A model generated the notes under the pieces. The model did not search any database, had not been told where the DNA came from, and was given only the letters and a program-made list of their open reading frames with translations. A stretch of 58,357 bases of DNA, the filler included, from Globobulimina sp. (Eukaryota): the NCBI GenBank assembly GCA_003354225.1. It is 6 parts of 6 records of this genome, joined end to end, with 100 filler letters (N's around TTAATTAATTAA, not from the genome) between each part and the next. Parts side by side here need not be neighbours in the genome. Positions count along the whole stretch, not along the records: positions 1 to 9,761 come from PIVH01000036.1; 5 more parts are not named here. One strand, written 5' to 3'. Shown piece after piece: positions 2,187 to 54,395 of this stretch (positions are counted from its first letter, which is position 1; the number at the start of each line of letters is the position of its first letter). Made by a program: the position numbers and the translations under genes.

Positions 2187-3676
2187 TTAAAATAAACCAA
2201 AATCTGTATCAAATGACAAAGTTCCTGAATCAGATTTTTGTTCTCTTGAATAGGTTTCAAAATATTGAAATATAATTGAGACAGCTAATAATATTCCAGT
2301 GCCCGATCCTATGGCGCCCATAAAATCCGCAAATATGGATAATGCGCCAATACACATACCACCCAATGCCGCAGCAGTTGGTATATATCGATATAATATT
2401 TTAACAACGGATTGTTCCCTATAGCCTTTAATGACTAATCCTTGTTTCTCTAATTGTCGTGCAACATCACGTGGCGATCCGCCAGAGATCTCAATCCAAA
2501 CCACACTGAATAATGCACAGCTTATTAATATAAACAAGACATAAACAATGGAATGCAATGGGTCCGTCACCACTTCTTGCATCGATCTCGGCGGTGACAC
2601 AAAATAAGCTAAACCGCCAACAGGTACATACTGTCCATGTGCATTGGTCCGCCAATCCCCAAATAAACGAACAAAGAAATTCTTACTGTATCGACGATGT
2701 AATAATTGAGAGAAAAAATATAAATTTGACACCAATGCAGTTTGTAATATCACCGGGATATTACTGGTATAAAATAATTTGATCGGATAGGTTTGATTTG
2801 AAATACCGCGCGCTTTCACATGTTTTAATGGTAAATCAACTCGGAATCCTTGAACATAAATCACCACTAAAAAGACAATAATTGTTGCCATTAAATTGGT
2901 TAAATTGGGTAAGTTTTTACGATAAAAGGCCTCTCGCAATGCACTAAATTTATTATTTCGTGTAATTAATAAATAAAAAAATGCAATAATGGCACCTTCA
3001 AACTCAGGGCCACCGCCTAAATTAATAGTGGTCGGCGAGAATGCTCTCCACACAATATTTTCACAGATATTTGTGGCAATAAATAAGGAAATGCCACTGC
3101 CCATTCCATAGCCTTTTTGCAACACTTCATCCAATAATAAGACAATAAGGCCAGCCATGAATAATTGGATAATGATTAAGATGCAATTGCCTAATCCCAA
3201 TGTGCGCCAATCGCCATACATGCCACTGAATACATACAATATGGCTTCTGCTAAAGTTATAAATAAACCTAATAATTTCTGTGCGCATGCATACAATTGA
3301 CGCTCTTTTGGGTCTTCAACGTTGACAGATATTTGTTTTGTGCCTGCCAATAATTGTAATACTAATCCGGATGTTACTATTGGTGATATACCTAACTCCA
3401 TTAAAGTGCCTCTGTTGGACGCTAAAACCACACGGATCCAATACAATGGATCTGCATGATCTGAAGGACGGATTCCATATAATGGGATTTGACAACATAC
3501 TAAAAACACTACCAGTGTTATAGCGGTCCATGCTAATTTAACTCGGAATGGCACTCGTTTATCTATTTTATTTATTTAGTTTTTTAAATTGGTATGATTT
3601 GGTAGAGTAAAATACCTGGTGGTTCTACCTCAGGTACAATACGTAGGAATGGTTCTAAATATTTTAAAATTCCCAT
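2187..3676 (-). CDS. SEC61A: Protein translocon Sec61 alpha subunit (2 exons)
   Basis: Conserved [30 protein letters not shown] and [13 protein letters not shown]. Exon 1 3676-3616 ([20 protein letters not shown]) is spliced via a 53-nt GT-AG intron 3615-3563 to [10 protein letters not shown]. Confidence 0.97.
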
Positions 3677-3866: not shown

Positions 3867-4616
3867 TCATTTGAATTTGCTGAGAACATCTTGATTACAA
3901 AATAAATTTTGAATCAATACAAAAGCACATATTCCAATGATCAACATTACCACAAACCAAATCATACCATTTTTATCATTTTCTCTGTATGTGTATTGAT
4001 CAAAATCGTATATATTATTATCATCATTATTTGAACCCATAACACCTTTAATGCCTTGTAGTGTAAATATATACGGTTCAATTACTTGAATATTTTTACC
4101 AGTTACATCCATTTTATTTGCTTCCACAATACGATCTTGCTGTTTTTTATCAGAAGATACAAACAATGACAGTCCATACTGCAGATTAACAATTAAATAA
4201 TGGCCAGATGGTTTGTGTGGAGCTTGCAAGATTTGAAATATATTTCTAGTTTCTGTAGAATATGGATGTGCTTCAAGTACATGATTATATGCCTTACGAT
4301 CATTTGATACAAAAAGCCATCGTTTATAATCAACATTAAAAAATCTATATCTGTTCTCAGCAAGTTTTTCGATTTGAAATATATTTCTCGTTTCATACTG
4401 ATATTTATGAGCTTCAACAATATTATCATGTTTGTTTTCATCATTACTTACAAACAAATATAGATCAGAATTTGGGTTACGTATCAACAATTGCTGCTTG
4501 TTTAATGCTGCAGCATCCAAATCAGTGATTGTTTCCACTTCAAACATCAATAAATCCCTGCCTCCATTTGCAATCATTGAACATAGACACAGTCCAAGTA
4601 TAAACATTTTGATCAT
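3867..4616 (-). CDS. Membrane-anchored secreted protein with three ~45-aa repeats (probable beta-trefoil)
   Basis: Signal peptide from ATG 4616 (MIKMFILGLCLCSMIANG), three LFVSxD...EA repeats (the first two ending ETRNIFQI), C-terminal TM helix. Confidence 0.65.
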   Translation of the reverse strand: MIKMFILGLCLCSMIANGGRDLLMFEVETITDLDAAALNKQQLLIRNPNSDLYLFVSNDENKHDNIVEAHKYQYETRNIFQIEKLAENRYRFFNVDYKRWLFVSNDRKAYNHVLEAHPYSTETRNIFQILQAPHKPSGHYLIVNLQYGLSLFVSSDKKQQDRIVEANKMDVTGKNIQVIEPYIFTLQGIKGVMGSNNDDNNIYDFDQYTYRENDKNGMIWFVVMLIIGICAFVLIQNLFCNQDVLSKFK

Positions 4617-4743
4617 CAGTGTATGGTTCAAAAAGTTTGACATTTCTAACATCAGGCAAACGTTTTTTGAAAAACAAAGGTGCGGAAAGTGAACACCCAT
4701 AAATCCTAACAAATGTACATTTTACATTAGTTTAACTTAAATC

Positions 4744-5905
4744 CTAATACGTAAATACCAACAATACCCCAAGGACAACAACAGGTATTTTTAATTGGAT
4801 AATTAATTTTGATTCGATTAATTTTGGAAATAATATGGAATGATACTTTGCTCGTAATTTTTGTTCAATTTTTTTACTCAATTTCTTATCAATACACATT
4901 TCCAAACTATTTTTTCCATACAAGTCTTGGTGAAAATAGTTCATTTCATATTTCCTGTCATAATTTAATAACAAACTCAATATTTTTTCATTTTTCCTAT
5001 AAACACACCACATTAAACAGTTCCAATTAAAATTCTGCATATCAGTCGCATTGAGATTTATAGCTTTACATTTTAACAATAATTTAACGACATCCTTTCT
5101 GTCCTCAGCACAGGAAACCATTAACGCAGTCCTTCCACGCTCATCTTCCAAGTTAATATCTGTCCATTGGTTGCTTATCAATGCTTGGACAACATCGCAA
5201 TGCCCGCGATGCGATGATACCAATAATGGTGAAATCTCTATTGATATTAAAATAAATTAATTATATAATTATATACTAATATATATAACAAAGATATAAT
5301 AAGAATATACATGGTCATACCATACCATCTCTATTGCATATATTTGGATTTGCGCCCATTTTTAATAACAATATAACAATATCCGCTGCTCCAATTTTGG
5401 CTGCTCGAAATAATGCAGTTGAATGTTCTCTGTCTCTTGCATTTATATCTAACTTTATTGATATATCATTCATATTATTTATATTATGCAAATGTTGTTT
5501 ATTTTGTTGTTTATCTTTATTTATTAAAATTTCTATCAAATTCAAATCCCCTTTTTCTGCTGCAAAATGAAGCACTGTTCTTTGTAATTTATGATCCATT
5601 TGTTTCGAAAAGTCAATGATTTGTTTTGTTTTAAACATTTTCTGTACTGCCCATATTCTATCTTTTTGTATTGCCCATATTAAAGGAGTCCATACTTGAT
5701 GTTTATTGGCTGAATTACCATTTAAATCAATTAATGATAACAATTCAGTAAATTTATCCTTTTCTTCCCTTACAATGCTATGGATAAATCTTTTCATTTT
5801 TTTCTCCTTTGCCTCCTTATCATCTTTATCATCCTCATCCTCATCCTCTGGCAAAACCATTGGACTATAATACAATGTGTTGCTTTGTTTGTCATTGTTA
5901 GCCAT
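4744..5905 (-). CDS. Ankyrin-repeat protein (2 exons)
   Basis: TPLIWA, TVLHFAA, TALFRAA, SPLLVSS and TALMVS ankyrin motifs; intron about 5325-5238 joins NRD to EISPLL. Confidence 0.85.
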
Positions 5906-6026
5906 GTTTGTTTTTCGTTGATTGTTTTCAGACTTAAGATGAGTGAGATGGCGTGGAAAAGGATGAGGGTTAATTAGACCGATGGACTTTATATATATCA
6001 TATATCATATATGAGTCTACAATGAT

Positions 6027-7741
6027 TCATTTTTTTAGAACATTTTTCTTTGTTTTACTTCTTGATTTAAATTTCTTTTTTAGGACATTTTGTGTGGTAT
6101 TTTTTTTTTCCATTGCTTTGAAAACATTTTTAGCAGCGGCTGCCGCCTCAGTGAAAGCTTTATCGACTTGGATTGACGACACCTTTGACACACGCGGTTG
6201 TTTAGCCATATTTTTGAACACTGATTTCTGTTTTTGAACAACTTTAGCTGCCGCAATCCTTTTTTGTTCCTCTTCGTCCGCTGTTATTATTTTCCTGTTT
6301 GACTGTTGTAACCCTTTAAATTTTATTTTGCCCCCTTTTCCACGGGAAGCTAAATACTCATCTCTTTGTTTCGTTGAATGAATATTTGTGCTCGATTGTA
6401 AGCCACTAAATTTACTCACTTTGCCCGCAGTGTTTAATTCATCCACGGCATTCCTCTGTTGATTAATATCCATAGCCATATTATAAGAAATATCTGCTAT
6501 TTTATCATAATCTTCTGGACGTATATTAACATTCTCATTTATTAGTTGCATTTTCGATAATAATGGCACTGCTCCATTTCGCTTCGCAAATTGTGATTTG
6601 GCACTGGCAATATTTCCTCTCTCCTCAGCAGTCAGTATTGGAGCTAGAGCTAGAATTAAAATGAATATATTTAAGTCAATTAACACATAAACATATCATA
6701 CAACATTACCATGGCCAGCCATCGGAGCCATCGGAGCTCCAGGAATTGATGCTATTTTTTAGTGTCAAACTGCAGAAATTGTACGTACAAATTTTCAACA
6801 CAACACAACACAAACCAGCTATTGGAGCTTTTGTTGATATTGGAGGCATTGGAGCCATTTGAGGCATTGGGGCCATTTGAGGTATTGGAGCCATTGGAGG
6901 CATTGGAGCTTTTGGAGCCATTGGAGGCATTGGAGCTTTTGGAGCCATTGGAGGCATTGGAGCTTTTGACAACATTGGGGCCATTTGAGGCATTGGAGCC
7001 ATTGGAGCTTTTGGAGGCATTGGAGGTATTGGAGCCATAGGAGGCATTGATGGCATTGGAGCCATTGGTGCTCCAGAAGGGAGTGGTGCTGTTTGAATTA
7101 CATTCTTTGCAGGCAATGTTGTTGGAGCCATAGGTGCACCTCCCGGTAATGGCGCTATTTGTGGGAGTGTATAATCAATATATAAAATATATGCATATGA
7201 TTATGATTATGATACCTGGCAATATTAATGGTGCAGATGAACGTGGTGGAGCAACAGGTTTAGGTTTTGGAGGTTGTACTTTCTTTATTTGGGAAATATC
7301 AACTTTATTCATTTCAAATATAGATTTTATATCATCTAAATCGCCCAATCCATCCACATCCAAATCAATAGAATATCGTCCAAATGATTTTGAATCAAAC
7401 GTAGATGGTGGTACATTTAATGAAGTTAAATCATCATCGACATCCACAATAAATGCACTAAAATCCAATGTATCTACCTCAGCCATTAATAGCTCATCGG
7501 GAGGCTGCAGTGTTTGGTTGTTACTTGCTTCAGATAATGGTGGCGGTGTTGGCGATTTAGAGTGATGTGATAAATTTCCTTTGTTGAGTGGATTCTTATA
7601 TTTTAATGAGTTTATCATTGTTTTATTCTGCAATTTATTCAAAGCATCCGCTGTCTTAGATATTCGTGCACCATATTCATTACTAATTGTATCGGCGATT
7701 GTATTTATATTCTTTACTGTTACACTGCGTTTAGTTGTCAT
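6027..7741 (-). CDS. Hypothetical protein with Pro/Met-rich (PPMAP) repeat and basic C-terminus (4 exons)
   Basis: GT-AG introns 7215-7155, 6815-6752 and 6709-6650, all phase 1, join the reading frames into one continuous CDS. Confidence 0.7.
6816..7075 (-). repeat. Coding tandem repeat encoding APMPPMAPK units
   Basis: Imperfect tandem units such as ttggaggcattggagcttttggagcca. Confidence 0.85.
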
Positions 7742-7769
7742 GCTGTAAACTATTGAAAAGATAAAAACA

Positions 7770-9761
7770 ATGTCGTGCACTACTTCTGGGTTATGGCACT
7801 TATCCACCGACACTAACAAAGATATATTTCATATTGTTGAGGTATTGGCAGTTACTGTAGAGATTGTTTGTATATTGTTGTATGTGAGAACGAATAGGAA
7901 TATATCCGTGAATTCAAACATCACAGATAAAAGTATTGTGATTAATGATTATGAAGATACTGTTGATGATTACGATGGATATGAAAAATTAGCGAGGAAA
8001 ATAAAGAAAGCAAATAAAAACACTATTTTGCCCGTTTATTTTAATCTGTTAAAATGGTTTATTTTCTACCAAATAATAATGATAATATATTCGTTGGCAA
8101 TATTTGTGTTGTCCATAAATAAAACAGCAATAAAAACAGTAACTAAATAGTTTAGCACTTTGCTACATTACTTGTATGAAAACAATACAAACATTAAATT
8201 ATATAAAATATATAGTATAATTATTGCATTTGAAGGTTTTATTGTGAATTTCTTTTGGTATAGTTTTATGTATTTGATAATCTGGAGTTTTATACAAAAA
8301 TCAAGCGGGAAAAATTCATGGAGGAGGAGTGCGTATATATCCTTATTTTTAGGTGTTGTACATGGCGCTGCCTTTATATTTATGTTTGAAATAATTGTCG
8401 ATTGCTTCACCACGAGATTTATCATTATGACATTATGCTCATTTGATTTATCCATATTTATCATCTTAATATATTACATGGTCAAATATCCAAGGAAGAG
8501 ATATAAAAAATCATTAATTTGTTACACACTCATTATCACTGTAATACATATAATATGGTTAATACTTAATATATTTGCCTATATCAATAAAAATGGATCT
8601 TTTTACATTTATTATATATTTGATGTGCTGCGACAATTAATATTTCCAATCATCTTATTTTTTACACTCAAATATGACTCTGAATATTGGTCGGAGATGG
8701 CATATTCAATTATGTGCTCCAATCATGCCCGCTTATCCATATGGGACGAATATGTGGATATAGAATCTACAAATTATGCCTCGGCCTCAGAGTCGACTAC
8801 AAATACAAATACAAATCTATCCATCTATGACGAAGTAATAAATTTAGCCGCCTCTGAAATGCAAATACCTATATTTGAATGGTGTTGCTTAGGTATTGAC
8901 AATGATGAAATAGTTGGCTTAGGCACATATGCTCATGTATTGTTAGGCAAATATAAAGGAAGGAATGTGGCAATAAAATGCATAGTTTGCGATGAATTAG
9001 ATATTGAAACAATGCATTTATTTTATAAAGAAGCATTATTATCCTTATCATTACAATCGAGAGGTATATCACATCCAAACATTGTCCAATTTTTAGGGAT
9101 TGCCATTCAGCCGCCTGAGCTATGTCTAATAGTTTAGCACTTTTACTACATTACTTGTATGAAATTAAAACAATATATAAATTATATAAAATATAATATA
9201 TAGTATGAATATTGTAAACACAAATCATTAACCAATGTTTTGCAAAATGTACATTTATATTCAAATATTAGTTACATTCAAATTTTATATATGGCGCAAG
9301 ATATTGCCAAAGGAATGAAATATTTGCACAAACATGATATTATCCACAGAGACTTAAAAACTGACAATGTATTAATTCATTCATATACGGCTAACAAATC
9401 AAATACTGCCAAATATCCAAACAAACTGTTTATTGCAAAAGTATGTCTACACTCTCTAACTAACATTTATATATATATTATAATTATAATTAATTAATTA
9501 TATATATATCAGGTCTGTGATTTTGGGCTTGCCAGAAAAGTTGAAATGAATCAATTAAATCCAAATGATATGGATGACGAAGCATATATTTATGTTGATG
9601 ATCATGACGAATTGGCTCAAGCAAATGGTTGTAATTCGCCGAGTTTATCATCGATCAGATCCATCAGATCCATTCGATCCATTAAATCAAAGAATTCTGC
9701 AAAATCATCAATTTCGGAATTTATATTATCAACTTTAGGAATAAATACATTGAATATGAAA
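7770..9761 (+). CDS. Multi-pass (7TM-like) membrane protein fused to a TKL protein kinase; 3' truncated
   Basis: About 7 hydrophobic helices ending in DSEYW, then GLGTYAHV, VAIK, HPNIVQFLG, HRDLKTDN and CDFGLAR. Introns at 8150-8215, 9132-9203 and 9441-9512. Confidence 0.88.
8150..8215 (+). mobile_element. Introner-like intron, copy A (66 nt)
   Basis: GT-AG intron sharing long identical blocks with the intron at 9132-9203; ATAGT at both junctions. Confidence 0.6.
9132..9203 (+). mobile_element. Introner-like intron, copy B (72 nt)
   Basis: GT-AG intron whose removal restores LCLI|YEYC; highly similar to 8150-8215; ATAGT at both junctions. Confidence 0.6.
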
Positions 9762-9861
9762 NNNNNNNNNNNNNNNNNNNNNNNNNNNNNNNNNNNNNNN
9801 NNNNNTTAATTAATTAANNNNNNNNNNNNNNNNNNNNNNNNNNNNNNNNNNNNNNNNNNNN
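9762..9861. other. Artificial contig linker
   Basis: 44 N + TTAATTAATTAA (stops in all six frames) + 44 N. Confidence 0.99.
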
Positions 9862-19601: not shown

Positions 19602-19701
19602 NNNNNNNNNNNNNNNNNNNNNNNNNNNNNNNNNNNNNNNNNNNNTTAATTAATTAANNNNNNNNNNNNNNNNNNNNNNNNNNNNNNNNNNNNNNNNNNN
19701 N
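19602..19701. other. Artificial contig linker
   Basis: N44-TTAATTAATTAA-N44. Confidence 0.99.
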
Positions 19702-21073: not shown

Positions 21074-21159
21074 CTTTTTATAAAGCATACACAAAGTTTT
21101 TTCTGAGCTTCTGATAATTTATGATTTAACCTTTTTCGGAAATTTCGACTTTGTATCGT

Positions 21160-23469
21160 ATGGCACGTATCCAATCCACTTTTGACTTGAAGGCGAGTTT
21201 ATCAGTTTCTAGATGTCATTACATTCGCTCAGATTGCATTCATAAGAGGTATGTGTTCAAATGTTTGCATGTGATATCGATAAAATTAATTACATTCTTT
21301 GTCAGATATTTGAGTGTGGCACGCAATGATGACAGCAAGAGACACAGATTACGTTTAAGACATAATCATGACATTGGAAGTTATATTAAAGCAATATCAA
21401 AATGTGGTAATAATGAGAACCGCGCATTAAAAATATTCTCAACCATAATTGATTGGAATTTATCACCAGATTTACATACATTTAATGCATTAATTAATGT
21501 AGCATCAAAAGCACAAAATTTGTCATTATGTTGGGATTTATTAAATAAAATGAGATTAAAATATCAAATATATCCAAATCATGAGACATATCTTGTTTTA
21601 TTTGATACAATGTTAAAACACAAGCAATATAATGACATACTAAACGAATTTGAAGATATTGTTCAAGAATACAAATATATTCACCCCGATCATTCTCTGT
21701 TGTTATTGACAAGCATCAATCAAATATTACCAATAACAATCATTTCATGCGGTAAATTGAATAAAATTGATCTGGCAAAGCAATTATTCAACCAATGGTA
21801 TAATAATGAGAACAATAATAACAATGCGATTATCAACTCCATAATATCTGTCTTAGCGACTGATAATGTCAATGATGCAATAATATTTTTTAAGGATGTT
21901 ATTTTGAATAAAAATAATAAATTTATGTATAGTGATAATAGAGCGTATATATCATTGTTACATTCATCTGTCGACAAAGAAGAAATATATGAAATGATAT
22001 TGAAGAATAACAATGGCAATAATAATTTATTAGGGCTTGATATATTTAATATGATGTTAAAATACTACAATAAAAATAAGAATTGGTGTGGATCAATAAA
22101 AATTTGGCAGCACATTCAGTTTTATAAAACAAAGCCAGATTCAATGAGTCATATTTTTTATATACAATCATTAGTCCATTCAAATAGGGACAAAAAAGAA
22201 ATTGAAATGGAAATAGAGGCAATAATGAAGGATCGGAGTGAGATAATTAACGAATTGTTAGCAAAATGTATGATTTGGGCAATGATTGAAATTGGATTAG
22301 ATCCAAATAATATTTTTCTAGATTTTAAATATAAATTATTGATATTACCAAATATTTCATTATATAATGAATTATTATACTTTTCGATAAAACAGTTGGA
22401 TTATAAACAAGCATTGGACATTTTGGATGAAATTAAGAAAAGCAATTTAAAATTAAATACACAAACCTTTAACACATTAATTTATGGAGTAAGTAAATTG
22501 AATGATATTGATTTGATTGACGAGTTATTACAAGAAATGAATAAAGCACAATGCCCTATGAATGAATATACATATCTTTATTTATTAAGCCTTTATGCAA
22601 AAAATGGCGATATTCAAATGTGTAATTATTATTTAAATCAAATTCAAAACAATCACAATGCGTATCCACATTTAATTAATTGCTATGCCAATTATTTCTC
22701 ATTGGATAATAATAACAATACAGGCAATAATAATGAGTTTGAATTTAATCAATGTTTAATTTATTGGAATAAATTAAAATCATTTAACAAAGCAAATCTA
22801 TTGAGCTATATATTGATGCTAAAATGTTTAAAAAATTATACTCGAAATATTGAACAGCACCATAAAATATTGAATTTTACCATAAACCTATTTGAGAATG
22901 AATTTTTAAAATTATTTAAAACAAATGATAATAATATAAATAACAGTAATAATATGCGAGTGGCCTTCAATTTATTGTTAGATATTTTCTATGAAATAAA
23001 TGAGATTGAATTGGGTTTAAAATATTTTGTTTTAGCTGAATCGGTTGGAATATATAGTACAAAGAAAACAAATTATAAAATAGATATCCATGCAATGACA
23101 AGATACCCAGCAATATTTTCAGTTTTATATTTTTTAAAATCATTAAAACAAATATATGATACTAATCATAATGAAAAGTGGAATGAAAAACAATATGAAA
23201 TTATAACTGGTGTTGGCATGACTTCAATTGATTGGATTCCTGTTTTAAAACCAATTATTTTGGATTTATTAAATAACAAACTATCAAAGGCGATAACATA
23301 TCATATTCCAAGTTATAACCAAGGTGTAATTCTTTTAGATCCTCATTCTTTGAAAACATATTTCAAAACAAACCAATCAATAAAACTCAAATTGGACAAA
23401 ATTGAGATGAAAACAAAACAAAACAACTCATCCAACATTCAAACAGAAAATCACAATTTGCACATTTAG
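21160..23469 (+). CDS. PPR protein with C-terminal SMR domain
   Basis: PPR repeats (PDLHTFNALINV, NTQTFNTLIYG); SMR motifs IDIHAMT, IITGVG and NQGVI. Confidence 0.82.
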   Translation: MARIQSTFDLKASLSVSRCHYIRSDCIHKRYVFKCLHVISIKLITFFVRYLSVARNDDSKRHRLRLRHNHDIGSYIKAISKCGNNENRALKIFSTIIDWNLSPDLHTFNALINVASKAQNLSLCWDLLNKMRLKYQIYPNHETYLVLFDTMLKHKQYNDILNEFEDIVQEYKYIHPDHSLLLLTSINQILPITIISCGKLNKIDLAKQLFNQWYNNENNNNNAIINSIISVLATDNVNDAIIFFKDVILNKNNKFMYSDNRAYISLLHSSVDKEEIYEMILKNNNGNNNLLGLDIFNMMLKYYNKNKNWCGSIKIWQHIQFYKTKPDSMSHIFYIQSLVHSNRDKKEIEMEIEAIMKDRSEIINELLAKCMIWAMIEIGLDPNNIFLDFKYKLLILPNISLYNELLYFSIKQLDYKQALDILDEIKKSNLKLNTQTFNTLIYGVSKLNDIDLIDELLQEMNKAQCPMNEYTYLYLLSLYAKNGDIQMCNYYLNQIQNNHNAYPHLINCYANYFSLDNNNNTGNNNEFEFNQCLIYWNKLKSFNKANLLSYILMLKCLKNYTRNIEQHHKILNFTINLFENEFLKLFKTNDNNINNSNNMRVAFNLLLDIFYEINEIELGLKYFVLAESVGIYSTKKTNYKIDIHAMTRYPAIFSVLYFLKSLKQIYDTNHNEKWNEKQYEIITGVGMTSIDWIPVLKPIILDLLNNKLSKAITYHIPSYNQGVILLDPHSLKTYFKTNQSIKLKLDKIEMKTKQNNSSNIQTENHNLHI

Positions 23470-29367: not shown

Positions 29368-29467
29368 NNNNNNNNNNNNNNNNNNNNNNNNNNNNNNNNN
29401 NNNNNNNNNNNTTAATTAATTAANNNNNNNNNNNNNNNNNNNNNNNNNNNNNNNNNNNNNNNNNNNN
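29368..29467. other. Artificial contig linker
   Basis: N44-TTAATTAATTAA-N44. Confidence 0.99.
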
Positions 29468-39130: not shown

Positions 39131-39230
39131 NNNNNNNNNNNNNNNNNNNNNNNNNNNNNNNNNNNNNNNNNNNNTTAATTAATTAANNNNNNNNNNNNNN
39201 NNNNNNNNNNNNNNNNNNNNNNNNNNNNNN
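39131..39230. other. Artificial contig linker
   Basis: N44-TTAATTAATTAA-N44. Confidence 0.99.
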
Positions 39231-48796: not shown

Positions 48797-48896
48797 NNNN
48801 NNNNNNNNNNNNNNNNNNNNNNNNNNNNNNNNNNNNNNNNTTAATTAATTAANNNNNNNNNNNNNNNNNNNNNNNNNNNNNNNNNNNNNNNNNNNN
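48797..48896. other. Artificial contig linker
   Basis: N44-TTAATTAATTAA-N44. Confidence 0.99.
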
Positions 48897-50626: not shown

Positions 50627-53600
50627 TCAATAAAAATCATTGCAGGAACATTTACCGTCTTGAAAAGTATGAACGCGGTTTGCATCTGAAACAATTACTT
50701 TTCTGTTTGTGATGATTGAGATGAGTTTAATTGATTGGTGGCAATCATTACAAATTCTTAGATTCTTATTTATTACAATCTGATAATCATTTGCTGTTTT
50801 CAACAATGCATAGACCAATGCTAATTTTTCACTGTGTCGCAATAATTCATATTCTTTCTCCGAATCCGTGTTTAGCTCTTTTGTGATGAAACTAAAATCG
50901 TGTTTGAATGCATATTCTTGTTTTAATTGTTCCCATAATTCGTGCAGTTTCTCATCAATTAACTCTGACTCTCTTTTACTAAAATCCCTTTTATATTTAT
51001 TGCCTGCTTCGAATCTGTACAAAGTGCCATAAATATCTATCTCGGATATTCCTTTTGTTTTTGTCCAACCTCTCAATTTCATCTCTTTCCGAATCATTTC
51101 GACTTTATCGAATTCCTGATATGCGCCATAAATATGTGATAATAATATGGAGGCTGCTCCTAATTTATCCGCATATTTGTGGCCAACAAATCTTTGTTTC
51201 ATTTGATTGAAAACAGTTTCTGCCATTTCCTTATTCTTATATTTGCGACATCCGTTCAACAATGACATCCACACAGAATAAGGCAGCAATAATATATCAT
51301 TCTCATCCATTATAACATCAAATGCTTGCTCCAAAAACCCATTTCGCGCAAAGCAATCAACCAACGCATTTATAGTATTTGCAGTATAATTTTGTGGCGA
51401 ATGTTTTATTTCACTTTGCCATAAATATTGTGCCTGCTCCACATTGCCACTGTGACTGTACGCATTGAGTAAAGATGTATAAATCTTATCATCTGCTTTT
51501 AAACCAACTCCATTCTTCATTCTATCAAACAGCTCCTCCACTTTCTGCAAATCTCCATTGCGGCCAAACGCATGAATGATACTGTTGAAAATATCAATGT
51601 CTTTCAGCTCATTAAAGTTAAATATTTCCAGACAAATATCCAACATTCCACATTTGCCGTACATATGAATCAAATTAATTTGTATCGACCGGTCATTCAA
51701 CATATTAATGTCCATCTTATTATGTATTTTCTTTCCAAAGTGATAAGCTGAGGATTGACTGCACGCTTTGAATAAAATAACATGTGATATAATATCTGCA
51801 GATAGCATGTTGTCATAATATTTTTTAAATAACTCAATGCATTGTAAATTATCTCCATTTTCAAAATAAGCAGTCATCATTGCATTAATACAAATAATAT
51901 CTCGCTCCGTCTCTCCAATGCAACCAAATATTTCTTTTGCTTTCTTAATATCTCCCAAGTTTCCATAAAAGTCAATCAGTGTACATTTGAGTTGAAGAGA
52001 TGGATATTTATTATTTATATTTTTAATGTTGGATATGATTTCTATGCCTTTCTGCTGCCACGAATCATTTCTATTTTTCATATGTATGCAGGCCTTCAAA
52101 GCCAATATTTGCGAGACATCATTTTCTGCATTTTCTAGTTTAAATTCCTCGTACAATGCCAGTGCTTTTTTGCAATAACCATTGTTTATATAGGCTCTCA
52201 TCAAACAATTTATACTTTCTACATTCTTCTCCTTCTCAGCAATACCATCAAAAACTGCTTCTGCACATAAAATATGCCCCATATTTCCAAAAGCTTTGAT
52301 AGCAATCAAATGGGTAATAATGGTCGCTTCCATTTTATCCATACCCTTAATATCTGCATACAAATCGAGGCATTTTCCATCCATTTTATGGTTACAATAG
52401 GCAGTCATCATACAATTCACAGTTTGAATATTAATGCATTTATTTTTATTTTTAATTTGATTGAATACATTCAAAGCTTTATTAATGTCATTCAAAGGAT
52501 GTCCGTAAAAATGAATCAATGTGTTTTGCAGTTGAACATGATGCTCAATATTGCGATCATTAATTTTCCTTTTAATGATATCATTTCCTGTCAATATATC
52601 ATCCGTATTACTGCAACATTTAAGTGCCAACAATATGGATATATCATCCATCAAATCTGTTTCTTGATATTTACAATACACTTTCAACGCTTCTTTATAT
52701 GAATTGTTTTGGATCAAAGCTTGCATCATATTATTAATGCTCACATTATCTTTATTTTCAAGATTGGTAAATGAGTTTATGGCTTTCTCAATCTCTCCAA
52801 AATGGCCATAACCAGCAATCAATGTATTATTCAATTCAATGCTTGCAATATTTGTAATATTTTTAACAATCTGCTTGATATTGATGGCATCATTTGTATT
52901 AATACACATTTTGAGCAATAATATGTGTGAGACATCATCATGAATTCTTTTGTATTTGTTATACAAAGACAGTGCATCTTCAAATCGTTTATTTTCATTA
53001 TAAACAGAAATCATACAATTTATAATCTCAATCCTTTTATCCATTATATTTTCAAACAAATGCATGGCGGCACAAATGTCCTTATTATCACCATATGTTT
53101 TCAAAGCAATCATAAATGTCTGCGGATCACTTTGCAATTGTAAGTTGCCAATGTTTTCAAAGATATTTATTGATTCTTTCCACATTCCATTGTCAGAATA
53201 CATTCTCATCAAAGCATTCACACATTTTATGCTGGGATTTGCAATCTGATCGAATACATTTTGTGCTTTCGTGACTTGTTTAAAATGATTATAAAAATGA
53301 ATGGCTGTGTTGGCATAGTTTACATTGTTGCTTTTACGCAATGTCTTGTCCAGAATGTCTTGTCCCATTTGCATATTATTGGTGTTGGTACAGGCTTTGA
53401 CGGCCAATAAATGGGAGATATCATCTCTTAAATAGCTATATCGGGCATCTTTATATATTGATAGTGCCTCCATATAACAATGGTTATTTATATAAGTTTG
53501 GGTCATACAGTTGAGAGTAACCACACTTTTCTTGTTACTGTCAATATTGTTGAATATAAGCAATGCTTTGTCAGTTTGAGCAAAATGTCCATAAAAATTT

Positions 53601-54331
53601 ATCATACTGTTTAATAGCTCAATGCTGTGATTATTACTATTTGATGAGTTTACATTCAATTCTTTGATGAGTTGTTGCCCGAATCGATAATTATTGGTAA
53701 TAATACACGATTTGATGGCAAATAAATGGCAAATATCATTCATCTGCACAGTTTTATGAAAGTCTTGATATAAACGCAATGATTGTGGTTGACAGTTATT
53801 TTTAATGTAAGCTTTCATCATAGCACTGATTGTATTGACATTTTCCATATTCTTTGCCGGAATTGACTCAAACACATTTATTGCTGCTTGCATTTGATTG
53901 AAATGACTGTAAAAATTAATCAATGCATTTGGTACATAACTGTCATTTTCAATTAAGTGCAGTGGAACTTTCGAATGAATAATGCTTCCCTTTTCGAAAT
54001 TGTTTGATTCAATGCAACATCGCATCAATGATGGATAGGATACTTTGTCTGAACCTAAAATCATATGAATATCATCCCAAATTAGCCAGATTTTGTGTGC
54101 ATGTTTTGTGGATAAGCATAGTTTTACCATGGTATTGATCACAAAATGGTTTTTTGCTTCATTTGAAGGAATTTGGTGATAGATTCCAAATGCTTTTCCG
54201 ACAATCACTTGGTTTGTTTCTTTCCCGTCATTCTTTTGATACAAACTCTTTATTGATTGGGTTGCTGCTTTACAAGTTAAGAACGGTTTCGATATTGTTG
54301 AGAAGTGCACATGAAAACCTTTGGAAATCAT
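50627..54331 (-). CDS. PLS-like PPR protein with E and DYW deaminase domains
   Basis: More than 20 PPR repeats, E-like WMSLLNGCR...ILLSHIY, PG-box-like KTKGISEI, HSEKLA, KNLRICNDCH and HTFQDGKCSCNDFY; intronless. Confidence 0.93.
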   Translation of the reverse strand: MISKGFHVHFSTISKPFLTCKAATQSIKSLYQKNDGKETNQVIVGKAFGIYHQIPSNEAKNHFVINTMVKLCLSTKHAHKIWLIWDDIHMILGSDKVSYPSLMRCCIESNNFEKGSIIHSKVPLHLIENDSYVPNALINFYSHFNQMQAAINVFESIPAKNMENVNTISAMMKAYIKNNCQPQSLRLYQDFHKTVQMNDICHLFAIKSCIITNNYRFGQQLIKELNVNSSNSNNHSIELLNSMINFYGHFAQTDKALLIFNNIDSNKKSVVTLNCMTQTYINNHCYMEALSIYKDARYSYLRDDISHLLAVKACTNTNNMQMGQDILDKTLRKSNNVNYANTAIHFYNHFKQVTKAQNVFDQIANPSIKCVNALMRMYSDNGMWKESINIFENIGNLQLQSDPQTFMIALKTYGDNKDICAAMHLFENIMDKRIEIINCMISVYNENKRFEDALSLYNKYKRIHDDVSHILLLKMCINTNDAINIKQIVKNITNIASIELNNTLIAGYGHFGEIEKAINSFTNLENKDNVSINNMMQALIQNNSYKEALKVYCKYQETDLMDDISILLALKCCSNTDDILTGNDIIKRKINDRNIEHHVQLQNTLIHFYGHPLNDINKALNVFNQIKNKNKCINIQTVNCMMTAYCNHKMDGKCLDLYADIKGMDKMEATIITHLIAIKAFGNMGHILCAEAVFDGIAEKEKNVESINCLMRAYINNGYCKKALALYEEFKLENAENDVSQILALKACIHMKNRNDSWQQKGIEIISNIKNINNKYPSLQLKCTLIDFYGNLGDIKKAKEIFGCIGETERDIICINAMMTAYFENGDNLQCIELFKKYYDNMLSADIISHVILFKACSQSSAYHFGKKIHNKMDINMLNDRSIQINLIHMYGKCGMLDICLEIFNFNELKDIDIFNSIIHAFGRNGDLQKVEELFDRMKNGVGLKADDKIYTSLLNAYSHSGNVEQAQYLWQSEIKHSPQNYTANTINALVDCFARNGFLEQAFDVIMDENDILLLPYSVWMSLLNGCRKYKNKEMAETVFNQMKQRFVGHKYADKLGAASILLSHIYGAYQEFDKVEMIRKEMKLRGWTKTKGISEIDIYGTLYRFEAGNKYKRDFSKRESELIDEKLHELWEQLKQEYAFKHDFSFITKELNTDSEKEYELLRHSEKLALVYALLKTANDYQIVINKNLRICNDCHQSIKLISIITNRKVIVSDANRVHTFQDGKCSCNDFY

Positions 54332-54395
54332 TAACAACAAAAAAACTTTTTTTTAGTCAGGAGAGCAAGTATAGTTATAAAAGTATAGAATGATT

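Follow-up and report, generated by a model that had tools for sequence, protein, structure and literature searches.

Same-gene duplication (SGD) of introns is best described in fungi. Among 24 fungal species, 82 introns were assigned to this class, and half of the events came without duplication of an exon, a pattern that the authors discuss as possible transposition in the same transcript or transfer between paralogues (Collemare, van der Burgt, de Wit 2013, PMC3609843). C. elegans is cited with three same-gene duplicated introns, and Oikopleura with introns that are nearly identical (PMC3609843; PMC4122922). Here we describe two near-identical introns, A and B, that lie about 1 kb apart in one protein kinase gene of Globobulimina sp. 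(GenBank assembly GCA_003354225.1), within a 58,357-base stretch of DNA joined from six contigs, hereafter the window.

Other systems in which introns arise by copying differ in scale and in the evidence behind them. In Oikopleura dioica, new introns match other introns and RNA-mediated spread has been proposed (Denoeud et al. 2010, via PMC3609843, PMC4122922). Recent, precise gains in Mycosphaerella/Zymoseptoria are homologous to other introns of the genome (Torriani et al. 2011, via PMC3443670). Introners also make similar introns by copying, in some families without a change to the mRNA; a survey of 3,325 genomes, in which an introner family needs at least four introns, reports families with and without target-site duplications (TSDs) and terminal inverted repeats (TIRs), gives copy numbers from 5 to more than 2000, and concludes that DNA transposition accounts for the spread of most families (Gozashti et al. 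2022, PMC9860276). Fungal introner-like elements (ILEs) exceed regular introns in length and adopt stable folds (PMC3609843). For intron transposition itself, a 2012 review describes indirect evidence only and lists 14 unambiguous events (PMC3443670, Table 1).

The Globobulimina pair shares with the fungal SGD introns described in PMC3609843 its near identity within one gene, its regular length and the lack of an extra-stable fold. It differs in belonging to a foraminifer-like, rhizarian lineage, in that relatives show both sites empty, and in that the two target sites are alike. As in Oikopleura, new introns match one another, but that animal has massive intron turnover; as in Mycosphaerella/Zymoseptoria, the gain looks recent and the insertion is precise, whereas those cases rest on population presence/absence data and ours comes from a single assembly. 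Against the copy numbers of introners stand two copies in 58 kb, both in one gene, and the pair carries neither of the DNA-transposon signatures, TSD and TIR, that are found in many but not all introner families. Unlike fungal ILEs, A and B have regular length and no stable fold.

Results

The kinase gene runs on the plus strand to the end of the first contig. Its predicted layout is as follows.

7770–8149, plus strand: exon 1, with the ATG at 7770; its last bases, TA, start a split TAT (Tyr) codon
8150–8215, plus strand: intron A, 66 nt, phase 2, GTTTAG...TATAG
8216–9131, plus strand: exon 2, hydrophobic multi-pass region and kinase N-lobe to hinge (..PPELCLI)
9132–9203, plus strand: intron B, 72 nt, phase 0, GTTTAG...TATAG, a copy of intron A
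9204–9440, plus strand: exon 3, YEYCKHKSL...HRDLKTDN...FIAK, kinase catalytic loop (Pfam E=5e-14)
9441–9512, plus strand: intron C, 72 nt, GTATGT..CTAACTAAC..CAG, unrelated in sequence to A and B
9513–9761, plus strand: exon 4, VCDFGLARK..., cut by the contig end, with an N linker from 9762

When joined, these exons give 594 codons (1782 nt) with no stop, and the product combines a protein kinase domain with an N-terminal half that is hydrophobic and multi-pass. The start of exon 1, MSCTTSGLWH, pairs with MSCVDTGLWH of a relative (P0136), and the named members among the kinase-family matches are all foraminiferal (Reticulomyxa filosa ETO18088.1 and a Nonionella stella transcript model). Positions 4–76/79 of the Pfam Pkinase / PK_Tyr_Ser-Thr profiles fall at the end of exon 2 and the profiles resume at 78/81 in exon 3, so that they are contiguous across intron B; across intron C, relatives P0004, P0005 and P0006 align without a gap. 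Retention of intron A would create an in-frame TAG (TA+G) at its junction with exon 1, and intron B carries in-frame TAG codons at 9135–9137 (its second codon) and 9201–9203. Retention of either intron therefore stops translation at once. Both segments begin with GT and end with AG, and once they are taken out the frame is regained and the product is collinear with homologues, as expected of the U2-type GT-AG spliceosomal introns that we predict them to be.

A global alignment of A and B contains 60 matches, 5 mismatches and 8 gap columns, and blastn reports 86% identity over 64 nt (E=4e-14). Their local score of 46 compares with 14.7 ± 2.2 for 2000 shuffles (maximum 24) and with a maximum of 20 among 295 real AT-rich windows of 72 nt. 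The 5′ 32 nt are alike at 31 of 32 positions plus one indel, and exactly two occurrences of the 19-mer CTACATTACTTGTATGAAA are present in the window against an expectation of 0.03, a count of two that none of 100 shuffles reached. Intron C, with global scores of 13.5 to A and 17.5 to B, is unrelated. The similarity of A and B is real homology rather than a product of AT-richness, and the alignments indicate that one intron was copied from the other, or both from one recent source.

The exons around A and those around B specify unrelated segments of the protein, namely a hydrophobic N-terminal region at A and the kinase N-lobe/hinge at B; the flanking bases match at 16 of 40 positions over ±20 nt and are unrelated beyond about 20 nt. 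The pair thus has two properties of the same-gene duplications without exon duplication described in fungi (PMC3609843), near-identical introns in one gene and flanking exons that are not duplicated. A sequence-only reading of this DNA had listed five shared strings together with the coordinates, the phases, and ATA|GT and ATAG|T junctions, all of which are borne out by direct reading of the sequence, and it had rightly held that the flanking exons are non-homologous and that exon duplication does not explain the pair.

Several other sources of the likeness were considered and rejected. The copies sit in different reading frames, which rules out a shared coding insertion; the exons are unrelated, which rules out segmental duplication of exon plus intron; and the introns are unlike nearby exons, which rules out tandem duplication from adjoining exon sequence. 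Nor do A and B reflect a general extended splice-signal consensus of the organism, as intron C and an intron in the Sec61-alpha gene of the window lack the shared sequence.

A blastn search of the 58-kb window for a third copy found none, the next best match having E=0.006. We also scanned collections of metagenomes, prokaryote genomes and viral contigs, all unlikely places to meet this organism: the 19-mer had two metagenome matches, both chance and in coding sequence reading LHYLYE (a MutS-like bacterial gene and a fungal-like gene), and a pattern of the 5′ 30 nt had no match in the prokaryote-genome and viral-contig collections.

We then examined the ends of the introns. In both copies the base before the intron is A and the last intron base is G, while the base after it is T and the first intron base is G. 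This mismatch at both ends means that no in-register direct repeat is possible. The sequence-only reading had interpreted ATAGT as a target-site duplication, which fails on this ground: with a spacing of 65 nt for an intron of 66 nt, the ATAGT copies miss the register by one base, and the implied sequences before insertion (AAA TAG at A, ATA GTA TGA at B) contain stops. At B that stop would interrupt a conserved motif of the kinase, which is LIYEYC in relatives without the intron. The part of that reading that stands is the homology of the copies and intron gain by copying. Exact insertion without an in-register repeat fits reverse splicing or homology-guided copying, and not cut-and-paste.

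No terminal inverted repeat was found at the ends of A or B, as had been noted before, and the small hairpin previously seen in copy A is present (6-bp stem) and not kept in copy B. Stable folding is not significant in either copy (z = -1.64 for A and -0.52 for B, against 200 shuffles each). Rfam contains no family match for A or B at E<=1, and an intronic small nucleolar RNA or other known RNA was rejected on that basis. Their lengths (66 and 72 nt) fall between the extremes of the window's other introns: 53 nt in Sec61, 72 nt in intron C and 70–88 nt in further candidates. The pair is without the hallmarks of DNA-transposon introners or fungal ILEs and looks like a regular intron that was copied exactly.

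An internal GTATGA, of the donor type of the window's other introns, is present in both copies 24–25 nt inside the intron (8174–8179 and 9157–9162). Splicing from this internal site would keep an in-frame TAG in the mRNA, and therefore no kinase would be made.

Both insertion sites can be read in relatives. With A removed, ...KTVTK-Y-IIIAFEGF... aligns gaplessly to ...NTVVF-Y-IIIVFQGF... of P0136 (63% identity, 171 residues). With B removed, ...PPELCLI-YEYCKHKSL... is gapless in all six relatives that span the site, three of them fragments of open reading frames (ORFs; P0003 at 80% identity, P0001 and P0015) and three full proteins (P0004, P0005 and P0006). P0136, P0003, P0001 and P0015 are short ORFs from ENA/Logan contigs and carry non-homologous AT-rich tails; they therefore look as if they had been called on intron-containing genomic DNA that is uninterrupted at A and B. 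P0136, P0002 and P0003, each of which begins or ends in such a tail, are recorded on two contigs apiece; as their longest contig (5,071 nt) is the same, they are probably pieces of a single gene. Site B is likewise uninterrupted in P0001 and P0015, which are from other contigs. Among 272 proteins of relatives none ends at site B, and intron-coded peptides are absent beyond five chance 5-mers. The protein searches returned no transcript-derived protein of this kinase gene; a word-index protein search started from exon 1 had no matches, missed even P0136 (63% by direct BLAST), and is hence uninformative on site A.

The two introns differ by 5 substitutions in 65 aligned bases, and the relative's protein is 63–80% identical. 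By this comparison the duplication would be much younger than the split from the relative, and at least one of A and B would therefore be a recent gain. Both look like gains, since both sites are uninterrupted in the related ORFs. The P0136/P0002/P0003 gene appears to have its own breaks after ..SSGTQAW (around codon 160), near codon 382 and after ..HRDL (codon 483), positions at which the kinase gene described here is continuous. Of roughly six comparable interruptions none appears to be common to both genes, which hints at very fast intron turnover or cDNA-mediated replacement.

The exon bases that flank the two introns resemble each other over a short distance.

8142–8149, plus strand: upstream flank of site A, ACTAAATA, with the last four bases (AATA) the same as at site B
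9124–9131, plus strand: upstream flank of site B, GTCTAATA, ending in AATA
8216–8227, plus strand: downstream flank of site A, TATAATTATTGC, with 9 of 12 bases matching site B
9204–9215, plus strand: downstream flank of site B, TATGAATATTGT

The joined exon junctions read AATA|TAT at both sites, and the pattern common to them is AATA|TAT.A.TATTG. Over the 8 upstream and 12 downstream bases, 13 of 20 agree, which 533 of 391,105 random pairs of positions in the coding sequence do as well (p ~0.001, indicative only, as the size of the compared window was picked after inspection of the data). Ranked by likeness to site A among 1723 coding positions, site B is tied for 2nd to 6th, with one site higher (14/20); the 7-mer AATATAT occurs six times in the coding sequence and has an intron at two of these. 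Because the residues coded by the two flanks, YIII and YEYC, are conserved in relatives that lack the introns, the sites were already alike before insertion, and the copying process therefore selected or required a place resembling the original one.

Over 8184–8230 and 9170–9215, the 3′ halves of A and B (..ACAATA..AAATTATATA) are 77–79% complementary to the respective 3′ splice site together with the first 12–15 bases of the exon that follows (..TATTG). The exon bases involved are those that make the two target sites alike. This complementarity may be chance in AT-rich sequence.

Sequence context

The six contigs of the window are about 9.7 kb each and stand in descending length. They are separate contigs joined by linkers, and neighbourhood across a linker position therefore carries no meaning.

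9762–9861, 19602–19701, 29368–29467, 39131–39230 and 48797–48896: N linkers (N44-TTAATTAATTAA-N44), the joints between the six contigs
3564–3616, minus strand: Sec61-alpha intron, 53 nt, GTATTT...AAATAG, after codon 20

The GC content is 28–43% per 2-kb window and mostly about 30%, and the genes are long ORFs with few short introns. The Sec61-alpha intron is confirmed by a 99% identical protein of 478 residues from a transcript-sized JGI contig, and it is the only intron of the window with near-transcript-level support. Five public DNA-type runs (X1–X5) contain 0.69–0.97 of sampled words of the window, among them X4, from a second organism, with 0.71; three further runs with small shares may be RNA.

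Upstream of the kinase gene, its ATG (7770, plus strand) lies about 27 nt from the likely ATG of a divergent gene (7742, minus strand; ORF 7175–7828), a tight head-to-head pair. In the minus-strand neighbour gene a 9-nt tandem repeat at 6781–7122 encodes a proline-rich run, PMAPMPPMAPKAP..., and the minus-strand ORFs at 3867–7828 include ankyrin repeats and look like one multi-exon gene. Elsewhere, a pentatricopeptide repeat (PPR) protein of 1241 residues (50627–54352, minus strand) has an E motif and, at its C terminus, a DYW deaminase domain (Pfam E=5.7e-30), the architecture of a plant-type organelle RNA-editing factor, here in a non-plant protist. A second PPR protein is located at 21130–23469.

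Discussion

We rank first, tentatively, a precise same-gene intron duplication in which A and B are related by RNA-mediated transposition through reverse splicing. The excised intron would reverse-splice into its own transcript at a look-alike site, the product would be reverse-transcribed, and the cDNA would recombine with the gene to leave a copy at a second exon site about 1 kb away with no base gained or lost. The RNA route is placed first because the copied unit is the exact GT..AG intron, which an RNA (lariat) intermediate explains naturally; we infer both this intermediate and which of the copies is the parent. The pair also has exact boundaries and sites that are empty in the relatives' probably genomic ORFs, as expected of reverse-splicing transposition, whose definition in PMC3443670 further includes an RNA intermediate and reverse transcription. 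Two copies in one gene would be unlikely if they were placed at random among the window's roughly two dozen genes (an estimate, not a computed value), and this location, together with the exact boundaries, favours a local event.

A number of points weigh against reverse splicing as the source of the pair. The donor of A and B, GTTTAG, is unlike those of Sec61 (GTATTT), intron C (GTATGT) and the candidate introns (GTATGA, GTATGG and GTATGT), and the splicing of A and B is deduced from homology rather than from RNA. Site A is spanned by a single close relative (P0136), and the genomic origin of the relatives' ORFs is likewise deduced, here from the shape of the ORFs. The likeness of the two sites fits the target preference of a transposon or microhomology-guided copying of DNA equally well. 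The count of copies covers the 58-kb window and is compatible with independent insertions from a dispersed family. Finally, reverse splicing followed by reverse transcription is considered rare in the 2012 review (PMC3443670).

In the main rival, possible if unlikely, A and B would be independent insertions of a dispersed introner family without TSD or TIR that prefers an AATA|TAT-like target, and their location in one gene would be coincidental. Introners are reported from many aquatic protists, with some families that lack TSD and TIR and insert directly and with median lengths down to 30 nt (PMC9860276); the look-alike flanks could be such a target preference, and the relative's gene, interrupted at three other places and at neither of ours, suggests active intron gain in the lineage. 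Yet only two copies occur in 58 kb, both in one gene, and the next best match there (E=0.006) is no copy; no intron-derived peptide appears in the relatives' 272 ORFs, and the metagenome, prokaryote and viral scans gave only two chance coding matches, in collections poorly suited to this organism. Ranked third, and improbable in our view, is a copy made at the level of DNA without an RNA step, in which two look-alike sites separated by 983 bp engaged in ectopic repair or in template switching guided by microhomology. In its favour are the short distance between the sites along a single molecule, the exactness of the insertion, the lack of a TSD, and the bracketing of the copied unit by 4 identical upstream bases (6 with one gap) and by 9 of 11 matching bases downstream. 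These microhomologies, however, are short and imperfect, and a replication slip would need luck or selection to take the exact GT..AG boundaries as its unit.

We give very little weight to the view that the introns are old, have disappeared from the relatives, and have stayed alike through gene conversion or because both contain a functional element, for example an intronic RNA or a regulatory site. The near-identical 5′ 32 nt could reflect constraint of this kind, but both sites are empty in every readable relative, neither an Rfam match nor a conserved fold is present, the segments are too short for likely conversion tracts, and the exon flanks are unrelated a short distance away. It is just as improbable that A and B are unspliced small-repeat insertions that made a pseudogene, or an assembly artefact. 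The donor is unusual for the window and splicing is predicted without RNA support; against this, GT and AG fall exactly where removal restores the frame and the gapless kinase alignment, the remaining 1782 nt are stop-free, and 5 substitutions plus several indels separate the copies, unlike a collapsed-repeat artefact.

If reverse splicing within one transcript did produce the pair, it may be part of a wider process, which we regard as doubtful: active RNA-mediated intron copying in the lineage, with introns re-entering their own transcript at a home-like site (AATA|TAT.A.TATTG) and the same cDNA recombination erasing neighbouring introns. The 2012 review sets out a 'complete recombination' route by which neighbouring introns would be lost simultaneously (PMC3443670). 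Such erasure would explain why no interruption is common to the kinase gene and its closest relative. Were this true, A and B would record spliceosomal reverse splicing in nature, as a footprint that can be dated and whose target rule can be read.

Intron gain by same-gene copying is already described in fungi and a few animals, and what is new here is the lineage, from which no such case has been reported. The main texts of the 2022 introner survey (PMC9860276) and its 2025 successor (PMC12130899) do not mention Rhizaria, foraminifera or Reticulomyxa, and their supplementary tables may list rhizarian genomes. Beyond the known cases, A and B add empty sites that are visible in relatives at both positions and target sites that resemble each other. 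If the genome does carry many copies, they would form the first rhizarian introner family. The origin of new spliceosomal introns is still debated, and a young, precisely bounded pair without TSD is a small system in Rhizaria on which the copying of introns, whether RNA-mediated or homology-guided, can be tested.

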